The notes under the pieces were generated by a model, which made no database searches, was not told the origin of the DNA, and saw only the letters and a program-made list of their open reading frames with translations. A program made the translations under genes and the position numbers. Positions 5,693-17,440 of a stretch of DNA of 17,440 bases are shown one piece after another. Each line of letters begins with the position of its first letter. Position 1 is the stretch's first letter. This DNA is from Candidatus Hermodarchaeum yapensis. GTDB lineage: Archaea > Asgardarchaeota > Hermodarchaeia > Hermodarchaeales > Hermodarchaeaceae. The stretch is taken from positions 1 through 17,440 of the forward strand of contig JAEOSK010000046.1 of the NCBI GenBank assembly GCA_016840405.1, read 5' to 3'.

Positions 5693-6403
5693 TTAGAACA
5701 TATTTGTTGGCACGTTCTGTCGAGAAACTAAGGAACGCGTTTCTTCAATGTGAGTGCCAATTTCTTTGCGAATCGTTTCGATACGCTCCGATTCGAGATA
5801 GGGTTCCATGGTCCAAAGCAGGAGACTGGTATACAGCTCCTTCGGGTCCAGAAGCTCCTCAATATTCCTGATTGTCTTCATGCGGAACAAGTATTCATCC
5901 TCGTACATGCAGACAATTTGTTTTAATTTTCGGCTCAAGGCGTCAACGTTTTCCACAAGTTGTTGCACACGTGGCTCGTTGGAGCCTTCGGGTGTTAGTA
6001 ATCCTGCTCCTCGGCGCTGTAATTCCGAAACGCGCTTTTCTATGAGTCGCATCTTGCGAATGGAACTTTCAAAATCTGATGCAAGGGCTAAAACTTTCGG
6101 TAGCACTTTATCTAACAAGCCCATGTTCTTAGTGAGGGCTCGTTCGACAATGCCATCAAAGGAATTGAGTTTCCCAAGATCTTCAACGTTACGGAGATAG
6201 TTGATTTTTGATAATGAACCTAAAATAACACGGATGGGGCGAAGGGAACTTCGATGGGCAGATTCCCACCGGTTCATAGCATCGTCAAGACCTCCGGTTA
6301 CTTCTCGCATTGATCGTCCGAATTCACGAATGACTGCTGCAAGATGGTCTTCGTCCATTGTCTCTGAACTTCCGAGGGAATTTGCCGATTTAATGACCCG
6401 CAT
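5693..6403 (-). CDS. Helical-bundle protein resembling CINP and C1orf109 (AIRIM); candidate eukaryotic signature protein
   Basis: Predicted all-helical. RWESAHR and EDLGKLNSFDGIVER...K.....DKVLPK resemble C1orf109; MYEDEYL...DP...LLLWTMEPYLES resembles CINP. Both comparisons use human sequences recalled from memory. SD-like GGGGGA precedes ATG 6403. Confidence 0.72.
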   Translation of the reverse strand: MRVIKSANSLGSSETMDEDHLAAVIREFGRSMREVTGGLDDAMNRWESAHRSSLRPIRVILGSLSKINYLRNVEDLGKLNSFDGIVERALTKNMGLLDKVLPKVLALASDFESSIRKMRLIEKRVSELQRRGAGLLTPEGSNEPRVQQLVENVDALSRKLKQIVCMYEDEYLFRMKTIRNIEELLDPKELYTSLLLWTMEPYLESERIETIRKEIGTHIEETRSLVSRQNVPTNMF

Positions 6404-10623: not shown

Positions 10624-12075
10624 TTACGCCCTCTTCCAAACTGTTCCAGATTTTTCATCCTCAAGAATGATGCCCAAATCTTTCAACTGTGCTCGAATCT
10701 GATCCGCGGTCTTGAAATCCTTGTTCTTGCGAGCCTGCGCACGCAAATCAATTAACAATTTCACCAATCCATCCACTGTAGCTTCATCAGTTATCTGCGC
10801 AGGTCCTCCCATTCGGTCTCGATACAAACCCAACACTTCACCTAAAGCATCCAAAACCTCACGAGTCTTCAGTAATGTTCCTGCTGTTATTGTTTGGGTT
10901 CCAGTTAGAATTGTATTCATTAAAGACAAAAATTTACTCAAGCTTGCAAGGGCGATTGGCGTGTTGAAATCATCATCCATCGCTGTTTCATATTCAGTGT
11001 GTAGTGTTTTCAGCCCTTCCCAAAGTTCAGCATCTGCATTCGAAGGCTTTGCTGGATTATCTGCTTCAGCCAAAACGGCTTCTTGGGTGTGTCGTTGAAG
11101 CAAATCGATGGCATTATGGATGCGAGCTAACCGCGATTTTGCCTCATCCAAGTGAGCATCACTAAAGTCAATGGGGCTTCGATATTGAGAGGAAATTAAG
11201 AATAAACGAACAACTTCGGGATCGTATTTGGCGGTGATTTCTTGAATTGTGAAAAAGTTTCCCAAAGATTTCGACATCTTCTCTTTATTCACGGTGAGAA
11301 AGCCATTATGCATCCAATATCGGACGAAGGGGCGGCCACTCAGCGCTTCTGACTGGGCAATCTCATTTTCATGGTGTGGAAACACCAAATCGAGACCTCC
11401 GCCATGGATGTCAATAGGTTCGCCAAGATATTTCGCCGACATCACCGAGCATTCAATATGCCACCCCGGACGACCCTTTCCCCATGGTGCCTCCCAGAAT
11501 GGCTCACCCGGTTTCATTGCCTTCCATAGAGCAAAATCATCCGGATGCTTCTTTTCCCCGCTTTCACTCGGTTCAGGTTCATCAGGTTCTTTGGCATCCT
11601 GCTCCTGTCGTGATAAGGACCCATACTTCTTGAATTTGGAAACGCGGAAATACACCGAACCATTCGCTTCATATGCATAGCCCTTTTTGATGAGCTTCTG
11701 AATGTGTGCAATCATTTCCTCAATGTGTTCTGTGGCCTTCGGAAATGCCGTCGCTCGCTTAACGCCCAATTTATCAAAATCCTCAAAGTACTCCTGAATG
11801 TACTTTGTCGCCAGTTCAGTGGTAGTAACGCCCTGCTCATTTGCTCGACTAATCATCTTATCATCAATGTCTGTGAAGTTCTGAATGAATCGAACATCAA
11901 AGCTCTTGTATTCAAGGTACCGTCGAATAACATCAAACGCTACAATGGATCGTGCATGACCCAGATGGCTCGAATCATACACCGTGGGTCCGCACAAATA
12001 CATGCGAACTTCGCCTTCATGTAATGGTTTGAAGGGTTCCTTCTTCCGTGTGAGCGTATTATAAACTTCCAACAT
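10624..12075 (-). CDS. cysS: Cysteine--tRNA ligase (class I)
   Basis: YLCGPTVY, HLGH, DFALWK, GRPGWHIECS, DIHGGGLDLVFPHHENEIAQ, KMSKSLGN and C-terminal ADQIR. Likely start is ATG 12075 (SD GGGAG). Confidence 0.98.
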   Translation of the reverse strand: MLEVYNTLTRKKEPFKPLHEGEVRMYLCGPTVYDSSHLGHARSIVAFDVIRRYLEYKSFDVRFIQNFTDIDDKMISRANEQGVTTTELATKYIQEYFEDFDKLGVKRATAFPKATEHIEEMIAHIQKLIKKGYAYEANGSVYFRVSKFKKYGSLSRQEQDAKEPDEPEPSESGEKKHPDDFALWKAMKPGEPFWEAPWGKGRPGWHIECSVMSAKYLGEPIDIHGGGLDLVFPHHENEIAQSEALSGRPFVRYWMHNGFLTVNKEKMSKSLGNFFTIQEITAKYDPEVVRLFLISSQYRSPIDFSDAHLDEAKSRLARIHNAIDLLQRHTQEAVLAEADNPAKPSNADAELWEGLKTLHTEYETAMDDDFNTPIALASLSKFLSLMNTILTGTQTITAGTLLKTREVLDALGEVLGLYRDRMGGPAQITDEATVDGLVKLLIDLRAQARKNKDFKTADQIRAQLKDLGIILEDEKSGTVWKRA

Positions 12076-12139
12076 AGCTTCTCCCGCCTGAATCAGCCAT
12101 TCGTTCTTATAAAAGTGCAATTATTCCTCCGCAATCCCT

Positions 12140-13909: not shown

Positions 13910-13964
13910 AAGTACATAGATATTGCGGCTGCAACTGGCATTTCGCCAAAATAAGGTGGCTACT

Positions 13965-16900
13965 ATGAAGCGAACCAAAATCATTTCACTCCTTTTTCTA
14001 TTCATGATAACATTACCTGTACTTCCCATACTTCCTTTCACGGGGATAAATTCAGATTATGAGATCGCTCCGAATGATGAGTCGCTAGCTCCATATAGCT
14101 CAACTAATGCTTTTTCATCACCCCAACAAGAATTTAGCCTGTCGACATCGAGCTCAAGTGATGTCCTACCACCAGAAGAAGAACCCATAACTCAACCACC
14201 TCCTGACTATGAACAGTGGATTGGCGGTCCACGCGTTGTTCAATCCACATGGAATATCTCCCAAACATTCACAGATTGTGATAATGATACCGATTATTCT
14301 GTGTACATTGACAAAGGCATGATGTACCACGACACCAGTAACTTCACCCGAGTAGGAAAAATCGACACAACGAAATCCAACATTACTGTAGAAGATTACA
14401 ACCCTCTAGATGGGTGGTACTGGTATTGGCAGATGGATGAAAAAGAAGATCTGGGCGAAGTCGTCTTTATGGCATTTAATGTAACCGGGCAGGCTCCACT
14501 TCTTCTTTCAGGTTTCGCCATTTACCTCTATTCACCAACACATCCTTCCAATCCTCCAACTGGGGGCAATGTTGAATTCACAGTATTCGGTGCGGAATAT
14601 AGTTCCATCTCAGGTTTAGGTACGCAACCAGATTTGAGTAATCAAGTTGCCCCTTGGATACCCGACTATATTGATACTATTCCTCGAGGTGAAGAACGTT
14701 GGGTTTCTCTTTCTCCTGGCATGATGGTGGTTGTTTTAGATCCTTCAATGACTTATGCGAATACTTTCTACTTTGCTATCACTATGATGCCTGGAGCTGC
14801 AATTGGTTGGGCACTCATGGAAGATACAGGAACTCCCCCTGATGGTGACGGAGAAGATGAAGGAGACGCCTGGTACTCGTTAACAATGCCTAACTTGAAT
14901 TTCTTAGATGATGATTTCTTCCTCGCTGCAGTGTTTAATCGACATCCCTATCCCAGTGAAGTCGGAATGACAGTGAACAGCACCGCAGTGGTTGATCTCT
15001 GGCCCTATCCAGGCACTGGTTTCTGGGATGGAGGTTGGCATTCACCAGCAATCAATATGACCGGTGTCACACGATACTATGACGTCGAATTCCTATTCCC
15101 GGCAATCACCTATGACGTGACGTGGTTAGGCTGGTTCTATGAAAATATCTATGCCAACACGTCGTTCACGGCATGGGTTAATAATGATTATGTTGATTGG
15201 AATGTCAGCTTCTTCATCAACTACCCATCAGGAGCATTTGATCAAAGGTTGTTTGTTTCTATTGAAGATGATTGGACAGCTCTCGATGTCTTACTCGATG
15301 GCATACCGCATCCAGACTGGTCCGTTGTTTATTCACCGAGTACTGGGTGGTGGGTGCAAATTAATAATGCACAAAATGGTCAATGGAACGTGTTATGTGA
15401 ATCCTCCGCCTATGAAATACATGCTGAAGTACGAGATTCCGCCAATCAAATCGTAACAGACCTTTACGCCCTCGAAACGGCTTACGTTCGTGGATATGTA
15501 CAAGATCCTGGAGGCGAGAATGCCACAGACGGAAACGGGATCCTCTTTGTCTATGGTCCGAAGGGTAATCTTCAGATCGGCTTAATAAATCCTCTTCCAA
15601 TGCCTCCTGGAGGTCTAGTTGAAATCCCCTGGGATATTTGGACCCCACCAGGGATTGGTGGAATTTATACTCTTAATGTCCTTTGGACAAACGGCACAGA
15701 AGCGGGATTAAACGTTACCACTCTTGGCGTATGGCACACAACGCAGTCACTCATAATTGGGGAGCAATACCCTGAGCCTGGTGGAGAGCTCCTTCGCGGT
15801 GAGCGTGCAGAAGTCACCTTCTTCTATCATGATTTATTCGGATTTGGTATCGATCGGGCGACAATAACAGTCATCAACGAAACCAGTGGTTTCGAATGGG
15901 AAGGATATGACTTTGCAAACCACGCAGGTATTGGTTTACCAGGTTTGTACACAGTATACATCTTCACAGATGGCATAAACTTCGGATTGCACAATGTAAC
16001 AATTCACATCATCCAGAACTATTATGATGAACAAACCTACAACAAAGTGTTCACAATCAAAAGCCGAACAACGCATATTGAATTTTTGAACGGATTAGTA
16101 TTCGATAACAGTTCTGGGCTATGGGACTGGGAGCCAAACCCCCAACCTCTTATCAATACCTCCACTTCAGAATTTACCATTCTCTATAAGGATGATAATG
16201 GATTTCCGCTTGCTGGTGCTCAGTTGACACCCTGGCTATTAAAAGATGAAAATGCAACACGTCTGGACTGGATCGACCTACACTTCGAAGATTTAGGAGA
16301 AGCTGGGCTTTACAACATCACAATAGATACTAATCCCGTCGAAGGAAACATTTTCCATGAAGGAAATGTTGGGATTATCATTATTTATGCCTACAAGATT
16401 GGATATGAAGGAGTCTGGTCGTTTGATCCCGGTGAACCTGGACTAATAGGCGTGCTTCCTCAACCCCGTCCCACATGGATTGATGTACCCCTTGAGTATC
16501 AACACATTGAACTGTATGAAGATTGGCTCTATCCAACGCCCCAACACCCCAACATACTCCGGGTTGTTTTACGAGATACATTATCTGGTGAAGATCTTAG
16601 TCACGGAACCGTAGTTCTTGACGTTCCAGGTTCAGGTTATGTTCCTTTGAATTTAGCTACTCCTGGACTAGGTCTTTATGAAATCACCGCGCTCAATACA
16701 ACAGGTGCTACGCCCGGAACCTATGATTTTACTATTCGAGCTACAGCCACTGATTTTGCGAACTCAACGACAACCGTGAGAATTACTATCTATCCCAAAC
16801 AAGTAATTGTGTACGATGCGGTTCCTGATTTCCGTCCTGCTCCCAACCACGGAAGTTCATGGTCGTTGCGTATCCAATTCCGTCTTGGAATTGTCTCACC

Positions 16901-17440
16901 ACAGTTTATTTCAACCTCCGAAGGTGAATTCATTTCTTCATTTAGTAAACAACAAGGACTTGTTTACCTTCCTTTGGGCACGAAGGTCACTTTGGAGATA
17001 TTGCAAGGTGCTGTGTCAACCCAAATAGAAAAGTTCGTTGAAGCTGAAGGATGGGTTTACTTTGAAGGCATACTAGACCAAGAAGGGGAAGCCAATTTCT
17101 ATCTTTACATTGATGGTGACGAAAATTATGCTGGTTTTACTCAAGAAGCGATTATTTGGGAAGGAACACCATTGAGAGTGATGGTTCAGTCATTTGGCTC
17201 GTATTTCCTGAGTAATCCCCTCTTTATCATAGCAGCTGTGTGTGTCATAGTCATTCCACTTGGTTCTGGGCTATCTTATCGACGTTACGTCATGCTTCCG
17301 AAACGACGACGCAAACTCGCAAAGTACCAAGCCATCGCCGACACCTTCAGTGATGTCGCCAACCTCAACCGATTACTCGTCCTCCACAAAGAAAGTGGAA
17401 TATGTGTCTTCGATCCCTTCGCCGCAGAAAGCCAGGATGC
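13965..17440 (+). CDS. Large single-pass membrane glycoprotein (at least 1158 aa, 3'-partial): signal peptide, beta-rich/Ig-like ectodomain, TM helix, probable longin-like cytoplasmic domain
   Basis: Hand translation finds no stop from ATG 13965 (SD AAGGTGG) to the window end. N-terminus MKRTKIISLLFLFMITLPVLPIL; about 20 N-x-S/T sequons; TM LFIIAAVCVIVIPLGSGLSY (17220-17279); basic RRYVMLPKRRRKLAK; then DVANLNRLLVLHKESGICVF. Confidence 0.92.
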   Translation, partial: MKRTKIISLLFLFMITLPVLPILPFTGINSDYEIAPNDESLAPYSSTNAFSSPQQEFSLSTSSSSDVLPPEEEPITQPPPDYEQWIGGPRVVQSTWNISQTFTDCDNDTDYSVYIDKGMMYHDTSNFTRVGKIDTTKSNITVEDYNPLDGWYWYWQMDEKEDLGEVVFMAFNVTGQAPLLLSGFAIYLYSPTHPSNPPTGGNVEFTVFGAEYSSISGLGTQPDLSNQVAPWIPDYIDTIPRGEERWVSLSPGMMVVVLDPSMTYANTFYFAITMMPGAAIGWALMEDTGTPPDGDGEDEGDAWYSLTMPNLNFLDDDFFLAAVFNRHPYPSEVGMTVNSTAVVDLWPYPGTGFWDGGWHSPAINMTGVTRYYDVEFLFPAITYDVTWLGWFYENIYANTSFTAWVNNDYVDWNVSFFINYPSGAFDQRLFVSIEDDWTALDVLLDGIPHPDWSVVYSPSTGWWVQINNAQNGQWNVLCESSAYEIHAEVRDSANQIVTDLYALETAYVRGYVQDPGGENATDGNGILFVYGPKGNLQIGLINPLPMPPGGLVEIPWDIWTPPGIGGIYTLNVLWTNGTEAGLNVTTLGVWHTTQSLIIGEQYPEPGGELLRGERAEVTFFYHDLFGFGIDRATITVINETSGFEWEGYDFANHAGIGLPGLYTVYIFTDGINFGLHNVTIHIIQNYYDEQTYNKVFTIKSRTTHIEFLNGLVFDNSSGLWDWEPNPQPLINTSTSEFTILYKDDNGFPLAGAQLTPWLLKDENATRLDWIDLHFEDLGEAGLYNITIDTNPVEGNIFHEGNVGIIIIYAYKIGYEGVWSFDPGEPGLIGVLPQPRPTWIDVPLEYQHIELYEDWLYPTPQHPNILRVVLRDTLSGEDLSHGTVVLDVPGSGYVPLNLATPGLGLYEITALNTTGATPGTYDFTIRATATDFANSTTTVRITIYPKQVIVYDAVPDFRPAPNHGSSWSLRIQFRLGIVSPQFISTSEGEFISSFSKQQGLVYLPLGTKVTLEILQGAVSTQIEKFVEAEGWVYFEGILDQEGEANFYLYIDGDENYAGFTQEAIIWEGTPLRVMVQSFGSYFLSNPLFIIAAVCVIVIPLGSGLSYRRYVMLPKRRRKLAKYQAIADTFSDVANLNRLLVLHKESGICVFDPFAAESQD

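Follow-up and report, generated by a model that had tools for sequence, protein, structure and literature searches.

The 3′ end of the Candidatus Hermodarchaeum yapensis contig analyzed here (17,440 nt; the whole stretch is referred to below as the window) carries most of the gene whose product, in this Hermodarchaeia-type Asgard archaeon, is a type I membrane glycoprotein of 1354 aa; in that protein a large beta-rich ectodomain is joined through one transmembrane helix to a cytoplasmic longin domain. What stays constant in a very large Asgard family with quickly diverging ectodomains is the 240-aa tail, and profile comparisons indicate that its longin part is homologous to a cytoplasmic domain of bacterial proteins encoded beside Ras-like GTPases. 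Longin proteins themselves are known; what is new is a type I surface glycoprotein whose cytoplasmic end is a longin domain, and our literature search found no description of transmembrane-anchored longin receptors in Asgard archaea. The explanation that we hold to be probable, by a modest measure, is that, through these longin-tailed receptors, what happens at the cell surface acts on a GTPase switch within the cell.

The gene had escaped the ORF (open reading frame) track, in which only short shadow ORFs appear, because its frame runs off the contig, and the default ORF listing leaves out frames that reach the end of the source. When frames with open ends are included, the frame is open on the forward strand from a TTG at 13923 to 17438, and from the ATG at 13965 to the end of the window it encodes 1158 residues with zero stops. 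The window is the whole of contig C55 in an assembly of 2.7 Mb (77 contigs, 86% complete), and its final 54 nt recur, reverse-complemented, at the end of contig C42, the sole partner among the contigs. Contig C42 carries the frame on, in phase, for 196 further codons to a stop, and the full gene comprises 1354 codons. The hidden long receptor-like gene that the initial annotation had described, open without an internal stop from 13965 and continuing past the window, is thus confirmed as real and complete.

The join between the two contigs is confirmed independently, because a database protein of exactly 1354 aa (P0007) matches the window ORF plus its continuation on C42, bar one K/E difference, and its gene stands in the same synteny on an uninterrupted contig of an NCBI assembly. 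The order there is phosphoglucomutase (PGM), nucleotidyl transferase (NTP-transferase), cysteinyl-tRNA synthetase (CysRS), CofD, nitroreductase, the receptor gene and apgM, and a 60%-identical ortholog in another assembly has the identical gene order. Past the receptor gene on C42 lie a tRNA-Cys gene on the other strand and then the archaeal-type phosphoglycerate mutase gene (apgM). Named relatives of the protein come from Hermodarchaeia, Promethearchaeota and Odinarchaeota (all Asgard archaea), and near-identical DNA is present in sequencing runs from marine-sediment and seawater metagenomes.

The protein encoded within the window ends in ...LLVLHKESGICVFDPFAAESQD, at the very start of the cytoplasmic domain, and the residues that follow directly past ...ESQ on C42 read D-A-T-L-V-A-G-F-L-Q-A, which is the D..L..GF..A helix that had been predicted to come right after ...ESQD. 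We modeled the tail (residues 1106–1354) with AlphaFold2 (AF2) from an alignment of 124 homologous tails (alignment A1), and the model has a predicted local distance difference test (pLDDT) score of 83.5 and a predicted template modeling (pTM) score of 0.77. DSSP assigns a juxtamembrane helix (tail residues 2–28), strands at 29–36 and 42–44, a helix at 54–72, strands at 87–92, 95–101 and 105–111, and helices at 117–139 and 146–164. This order (beta-beta-alpha-beta-beta-beta-alpha-alpha), with its five-stranded sheet, is the order of a longin domain. Residue D25 of the tail is almost invariant across the 124 family members.

Structural searches agree with the longin fold that had been proposed. 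The top Foldseek match of the tail is the Sec22b longin domain (1ifq, E 4.8e-4), and nearly all of the first 50 rows show longin or roadblock domains, alone or within complexes. In exhaustive VIA-align comparisons the first match is a Lokiarchaeota longin protein (8yqg, Z 11.6 over 132 aa, root-mean-square deviation (rmsd) 3.3), in the company of Fuzzy (7q3d, Z 11.4, 18% identity), VAMP7 (4afi, Z 11.3), Sec22 (3egd, Z 11.0) and MON1A–CCZ1 (9lol, Z 10.7), with further matches to TRAPP, adaptor sigma subunits, SRX, MglB and LAMTOR; the best 44 rows are all longin or roadblock structures. Roadblock structures align with Z 10–11.3 over 101–108 aa, from residues 24–25 of the tail on and leaving the juxtamembrane helix unused. 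Longin is the better label of the two because the longin alignments span both C-terminal helices, whereas the roadblock alignments end earlier. At the sequence level the family goes unrecognized, since none of the 124 tails brings a Pfam model to threshold (a single sub-threshold Sybindin match was seen). Pfam and NCBIfam place the window protein in no family, and nothing meaningful came from searching the PDB with the tail by sequence or by profile. Soluble paralogs do give sub-threshold Pfam matches to Fuz_longin_1 (E 0.002 and 0.05) or to Longin. The complex predicted for two copies of the tail, with A1 as input, scored 0.30 against a mark of 0.42 and is evidence neither for nor against self-association.

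The expectation of about 120 more residues beyond the window held for the presence of the domain and fell short of its length, the actual continuation being 196 aa, because an additional unit of about 80 aa follows the longin domain. This unit consists of helices at tail residues 181–193, 202–212 and 217–229 and a strand at 233–235, the order of a winged helix, and it is modeled with pLDDT 83–94. Searched as part of the tail, it is covered by only one fold-search row (6ec8, Z 8.2). The Pfam family HTH_47 occurs in related soluble longin proteins, in half of one ESM Atlas cluster and weakly in the paralog P0006 (E 0.09). Support for the label is indirect, and we describe the modeled end of the tail as winged-helix-like.

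Used alone as a query, the tail retrieved 722 cluster representatives, 290 of them at E <1e-10. The representatives are mostly 700–3000 aa long, and in most of the top ones the module starts 0–14 residues past the last transmembrane helix. The A1 profile is present in 140 of 151 sampled genomes of the phylum, including all 72 of those of high quality, with copy numbers from 1 to at least 18 and mostly at least 8 per genome. The genome from which the window comes encodes three such receptors, the 1354-aa protein, P0003 (808 aa) and P0004 (1421 aa), together with soluble longin plus winged-helix paralogs (P0005, P0006) and more distant longins, so that the paralogs anticipated in the initial annotation exist in both anchored and soluble form. 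Many members from other genomes (P0057, P0070, P0111 and P0151 among them) carry 190, 215, 280 or 390 extra residues after the module.

Across 28 orthologs the mean identity is 80% in the tail and 45% in the ectodomain, and the tail is the more conserved part in every one of the 28. Identities so distributed are what a rapidly evolving exterior, joined to a constrained interaction inside the cell, would leave; they place a function in the interior under strong constraint.

The tail also has relatives outside the archaea. Among the sequences searched, the complete receptor architecture occurred in Asgard archaea alone, the longin module in bacteria as well. A shape search of the ESM Atlas with the tail returned clusters composed of Promethearchaeota only and, for the longin part, a bacterial "OmpA family protein" cluster of 6862 members (template modeling score, hereafter TM, 0.52). 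One such bacterial OmpA-type protein, in which a cytoplasmic coiled coil is followed by a longin-like module, a transmembrane helix and an OmpA domain, matches the A1 profile at E 1.4e-12. Aligned with hhalign, A1 scores 98.3% against the single bacterial sequence and 99.6% against a profile of 45 bacterial modules (E 1.3e-23), over 127 columns that make up the whole longin unit. Judged from these profile comparisons, the Asgard longin part is homologous to the cytoplasmic domain of the bacterial OmpA-type proteins. The bacterial family has 214 matches, Cyanobacteria, Calditrichota, KSB1, Acidobacteria and Leucothrix included; with the single bacterial protein P0193 as query, no relative was found among the genome contigs searched.

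Six bacterial loci were examined, from Cyanobacteria, Calditrichota, KSB1, Leucothrix and two further lineages. A coiled-coil ORF precedes the longin-like OmpA gene in all six, and in five a gene for a Ras-family GTPase of 165–181 aa lies 4–43 nt downstream on the same strand; the sixth locus has the OmpA part annotated as a short gene of its own, between the module gene and the GTPase gene. The loci are flanked by PAS, histidine-kinase, sigma-54 activator or HD genes. They are the neighborhood that Wuichet and Sogaard-Andersen (2014; PMC4316618) described as Group 1 Rup, in which the membrane protein was assigned a domain of unknown function, and we found no later work on Group 1 Rup systems in the literature. 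The homology reported here gives that domain a fold. The small ORF upstream of the bacterial homologs was considered as a second longin or roadblock protein and ruled out (hhalign 0.1%), its appearance being that of a coiled coil. When the six bacterial Rup GTPases were searched with a simple pattern, five lacked a recognizable D-x-x-G-Q G3 motif, which agrees with the remark that Rup GTPases of Group 1 are without the catalytic glutamine (PMC4316618).

On the outer face, the type I topology first described, with a signal peptide, an acidic, aromatic and beta-rich ectodomain, one transmembrane helix, a basic cluster and a juxtamembrane helix, is borne out by hydropathy, composition, glycosylation sequons and an all-beta model. 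The signal peptide assignment rests on hydropathy windows, in which one hydrophobic segment besides the transmembrane helix is counted, and the paralogs P0003 and P0004 share the same N-terminal pattern of a basic stretch followed by a hydrophobic one; the transmembrane helix was placed from hydropathy together with the terminal helix of the model. The ectodomain has an isoelectric point (pI) of 4.1, against 8.0 for the tail, and is composed of 14% W+Y+F and 9% G. It contains 20 N-x-S/T sequons where composition-matched shuffles give 7.9 ± 2.5, and the tail contains 1. An AF2 model built from 30 orthologs has pLDDT 81; past a disordered, Ser/Pro-rich linker about 50 residues long (model residues 1–48 have pLDDT <50 and no secondary structure), it is beta throughout.

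In VIA-align comparisons the lectin-like head (model residues 107–300) resembles the Bxb1 tail-tip protein (9d93, Z 12.8 over 153 aa, rmsd 3.2), the lectin-like domain of Cwp84 (4ci7, Z 12.7 over 145 aa, rmsd 2.8) and PHR domains (Z 9–9.6). The stalk resembles a macroglobulin (MG) domain of alpha2-macroglobulin (2p9r, Z 11.0 over 96 aa, rmsd 2.6), invasin (1cwv, Z 10.0) and adhesin extender repeats (6xi3, Z 10.1), and more beta domains flank it on either side, for about eight in total. The Foldseek matches were to C3/C5 MG chains and to the Nitrosopumilus S-layer protein at E 1e-13 to 1e-16 with low TM, which points to strings of sandwiches and not to a common overall shape. An ESM Atlas feature search with ectodomain residues 70–500 was uninformative (scores <0.8). 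A secreted chain of beta sandwiches, predicted to be N-glycosylated and held by a C-terminal membrane anchor, is what archaeal S-layer and adhesin-type proteins present, and the modeled ectodomain has the build of adhesins and surface-layer proteins. That build fits the numerous complex surface proteins seen on cultured Lokiarchaeia, which have no ordered S-layer (PMC9834061).

There is reason to think that the conserved tail communicates with a small GTPase. In the mechanism that we propose, the ectodomain would bind something outside the cell, be it a glycan, a partner cell or a surface, and the membrane-held longin domain would offer one of the many Ras/Rab-like small GTPases of the cell a platform for docking or regulation, a role modeled on the longins of Mon1–Ccz1, Fuzzy–Inturned and TRAPP. 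The winged-helix-like unit could serve as an adaptor to a further partner, and the outcome would be a link from surface events to an interior GTPase switch. The contact between tail and GTPase is suggested, beyond an analogy of folds, by the homology and the conserved bacterial gene context. About 31 small GTPases are encoded in the window's genome, of which about 20 are 30–38% identical to the bacterial Rup GTPases. A more specific proposal, which we advance only tentatively and regard as doubtful, is that the Asgard longin-tailed glycoproteins are the archaeal counterpart of the Group 1 Rup systems, that is, transmembrane receptors whose longin domain, related to Mon1/Fuzzy-type longins, would itself be a platform of the guanine nucleotide exchange factor (GEF) or GTPase-activating protein (GAP) kind and would switch a Ras/Rab-like GTPase.

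Several observations weigh against a coupling of these receptors to GTPases. The small GTPase or roadblock genes expected downstream are not there, the next genes being tRNA-Cys and apgM. No GTPase, roadblock or other signaling gene adjoins the receptor gene or its 60%-identical ortholog, whose neighbors are housekeeping genes (nitroreductase, CofD, CysRS, apgM and tRNA-Cys). Near the three receptor genes of the genome only one GTPase gene lies within 4 kb; it is found on contig C49 (G000:C49:32691-33173, forward strand; L025 9656-10186), 3.7 kb from the receptor paralog P0003, and genes for SnoaL, an FGGY kinase and a saccharopine dehydrogenase stand between the two. Ras-like GTPases, 5–13 of them, are present even in Asgard families where the module was not found, so module and GTPases are not co-inherited. 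Longin folds also serve non-GTPase jobs, as in SNAREs and adaptor sigma subunits, and Pfam gave no match on the tail at E up to 10, Robl_LC7 included, with no longin model at threshold. The C-terminal extensions of 190–390 aa found in other family members were considered as GTPase domains and ruled out, since Pfam gives only weak, sub-threshold TPR/MIT-like matches there. No RNA dataset is listed among the sequencing runs with near-identical DNA.

Because no GTPase gene lies downstream, signaling to a small GTPase, like the identity of the partner and the direction of the signal, is something that we infer, whereas the architecture and the fold are shown. In published work, too, Asgard GTPase genes generally do not share operons with the regulators presumed for them (PMC10933270). 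The Ras-family GTPase on C49 is the genome's best tblastn match for three of the six bacterial Rup GTPases (31–37% identity). Elsewhere in the genome, a soluble 354-aa longin protein (G000:C10:18543-19897, reverse strand; A1 E 8e-5) is encoded directly beside a Ras-family GTPase gene (PF00071, E 2e-50), one of few longin–GTPase gene pairs in the genome.

The same data can be read without a GTPase. It is somewhat unlikely, in our estimate, that the protein is a structural envelope protein or adhesin of a disordered Asgard surface coat that replaces an S-layer, the tail merely anchoring or clustering it through self-association or through binding to the cytoskeleton or the membrane, with no GTPase switch involved. 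An ectodomain of Ig/MG-like sandwiches (Ig, immunoglobulin) with a lectin-like head, like that of adhesins, invasin and the Nitrosopumilus S-layer protein, would suit such a coat, as would the many paralogs per genome, the complex surface proteins of cultured Lokiarchaeia without an ordered S-layer (PMC9834061) and the absence of a signaling gene near the receptor gene. However, a mere anchor needs no folded 240-aa module kept at 80% identity next to an ectodomain at 45%, and the homologous bacterial domain stands in conserved operons with a Ras-like GTPase and signaling output genes. The tail might otherwise be a sorting tag, its longin domain being recognized by coat-like, ESCRT (endosomal sorting complex required for transport) or vesicle machinery that directs the glycoprotein to protrusions or extracellular vesicles; the longins of VAMP7 and Sec22 are indeed recognized by adaptors and COPII, and the VAMP7 and Sec22 longins complexed with adaptor or coat match the tail as well as GEF longins do (Z 11.0–11.3). 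We consider this improbable. The MIT/TPR-like C-terminal extensions that some family members seem to offer such machinery match far under the Pfam thresholds, the top identities are to Fuzzy and Mon1 (17–18%) as opposed to SNARE longins (7–11%), and the bacterial homologs work in cells without such machinery and yet with a partner GTPase.

Least probable of all, and in our view very improbable, is a membrane-tethered transcription regulator whose winged-helix-like unit would bind DNA, whether the tail stays at the membrane or is first released by proteolysis. The helix, helix, helix, strand order at the end of the tail, the HTH_47 matches among soluble relatives and the tail's basic pI are what such a regulator might show; the putative recognition helix, however, is non-basic (net charge +0.4 ± 1.6 across the family) and poorly conserved save for one Leu, the sole 6ec8 row is not accompanied by any match to a DNA-binding winged-helix fold, and no sign of a cleavage site was seen.

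Asgard archaea carry dozens of eukaryote-like small GTPases as well as longin and roadblock proteins, and to our knowledge almost nothing is known of the inputs that feed signals into those GTPases. The family described here, which is nearly universal in the phylum, multi-copy and missing from Pfam, combines a longin domain with a large glycosylated ectodomain in one protein, and it bears on the molecular identity of the complex surface proteins on cultured Asgard cells. Its homology to a domain of the Rup operons moves the GTPase idea from analogy to a testable hypothesis with defined candidates. If the proposed correspondence with Group 1 Rup systems is true, receptor-to-small-GTPase signaling at the membrane would predate eukaryotes and would have been massively expanded in their ancestral lineage, which would bear on how surface recognition, membrane remodeling and GTPase switches were connected before eukaryotes arose.

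Table 1. Positions of the receptor gene and of the parts of its product (residues counted from the ATG; positions in the window unless a contig is named).
Feature	Position	Strand	Basis
Receptor gene, first 1158 of 1354 codons (5′ 85%)	13965..17440	+	open frame
Signal peptide, about residues 1–27, basic MKRTK stretch then hydrophobic segment	13965..14045	+	hydropathy windows
Ser/Pro-rich linker at the mature N-terminus, predicted disordered, about residues 28–80	14046..14204	+	ectodomain model
Lectin-like beta jelly-roll head, about residues 134–327	14364..14945	+	VIA-align
Stalk of tandem Ig/macroglobulin-like beta sandwiches, about residues 481–945	15405..16799	+	VIA-align, Foldseek
Single transmembrane helix, about residues 1084–1105	17214..17279	+	hydropathy, terminal helices of the ectodomain model, sequence
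Positive-inside cluster RRYVMLPKRRRK and juxtamembrane helix, residues 1106–1133	17280..17363	+	tail model, helix 2–28
Start of longin domain: beta1–beta2 hairpin LLVLHKESGICVF and first residue (D) of helix alpha1	17364..17440	+	tail model, fold searches, A1
Receptor gene, last 196 codons, after the 54-nt overlap	G000:C42:130277-130862	minus	
Rest of longin domain to residue 1270; winged-helix-like unit, about residues 1271–1345	on C42	minus	tail model

Apart from the receptor gene, the window holds archaeal housekeeping genes. Between 4226 and 10639 there are three paralogous phosphoglucomutase/phosphomannomutase genes and a gene for a hexapeptide-repeat sugar-nucleotidyl transferase, a cluster that comes to within about 3.3 kb of the receptor gene on its upstream side; two other assemblies show it in synteny as well, and it may supply glycan precursors for the surface protein. 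Upstream of the receptor gene, at a distance of about 1.8 kb, is a CysRS gene (10627–12120, reverse strand); the tRNA-Cys gene just downstream of the receptor gene has the anticodon GCA (L002 763-837). The 236-aa protein encoded at 5696–6403 on the reverse strand resembles the Pfam family CA109-like (ribosome biogenesis protein C1orf109-like; E 6.8e-6, 26.5 bits against a cut-off of 27 bits), and judging from this sequence match the Asgard protein may belong to the ribosome-biogenesis factors of eukaryotic type. Positions 1–40 of the window overlap the end of contig C19 (G000:C19, minus strand, last ~120 nt), and because both ends of the window contig overlap other contigs, the genome order here is probably C19 (reverse complement), C55, C42 (reverse complement).

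Among known systems, the membrane component of the Group 1 Rup loci (PMC4316618) is one of the closest, its cytoplasmic domain being homologous to the Asgard tail over the whole longin unit and sharing with it the HKeSG hairpin, the D.DL.SGFL.AI..F helix and the dG and F.G turns. In both, one transmembrane helix holds the domain at the inner face of the membrane and a binding domain lies outside. The order is reversed, however, with the module N-terminal to the transmembrane helix in the bacterial protein and an ectodomain, helix, module order in the Asgard one. Outside, the bacterial protein has BON and OmpA peptidoglycan-binding domains, in contrast to the giant glycosylated Asgard ectodomain, which has no OmpA or BON match; inside, it has a coiled coil in place of the winged-helix-like unit, and its gene shares an operon with the GTPase gene whereas the Asgard gene does not.

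The best structural match, the Lokiarchaeota Roadblock–Longin protein 8yqg, comes from the same phylum as the tail and yet is just 6% identical to it, and other Asgard longin proteins occur in soluble form or as fusions with roadblock or GTPase domains (PMC10933270), unlike the longin that here ends a type I surface glycoprotein. The highest identities to the tail belong to the first longin domain of the Mon1–Ccz1 and Fuzzy–Inturned (CPLANE) complexes (Fuzzy 7q3d, Z 11.4, 18%; Mon1 9rs7, Z 10.4, 17%). Tri-longin Rab GEFs (Mon1, Ccz1, Fuzzy, Inturned and HPS1/4) nevertheless have three longin domains where the Asgard tail has one and a small helical unit, and Mon1–Ccz1 and Fuzzy–Inturned are peripheral where the Asgard receptor is membrane-integral, with a GEF role for the Asgard longin only putative. 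The roadblock platforms Ragulator/LAMTOR and MglB belong to a common fold superfamily with the tail (Z 10–11 over ~105 aa) and follow a like logic, that of a small-GTPase platform held at a membrane, which for the Asgard tail is proposed. The tail differs from roadblock domains in its longin order of elements, with two C-terminal helices aligned to residue 165, and gives no Robl_LC7 match, and it is attached to the membrane by a transmembrane helix of its own, whereas Ragulator is attached through lipidated LAMTOR1.

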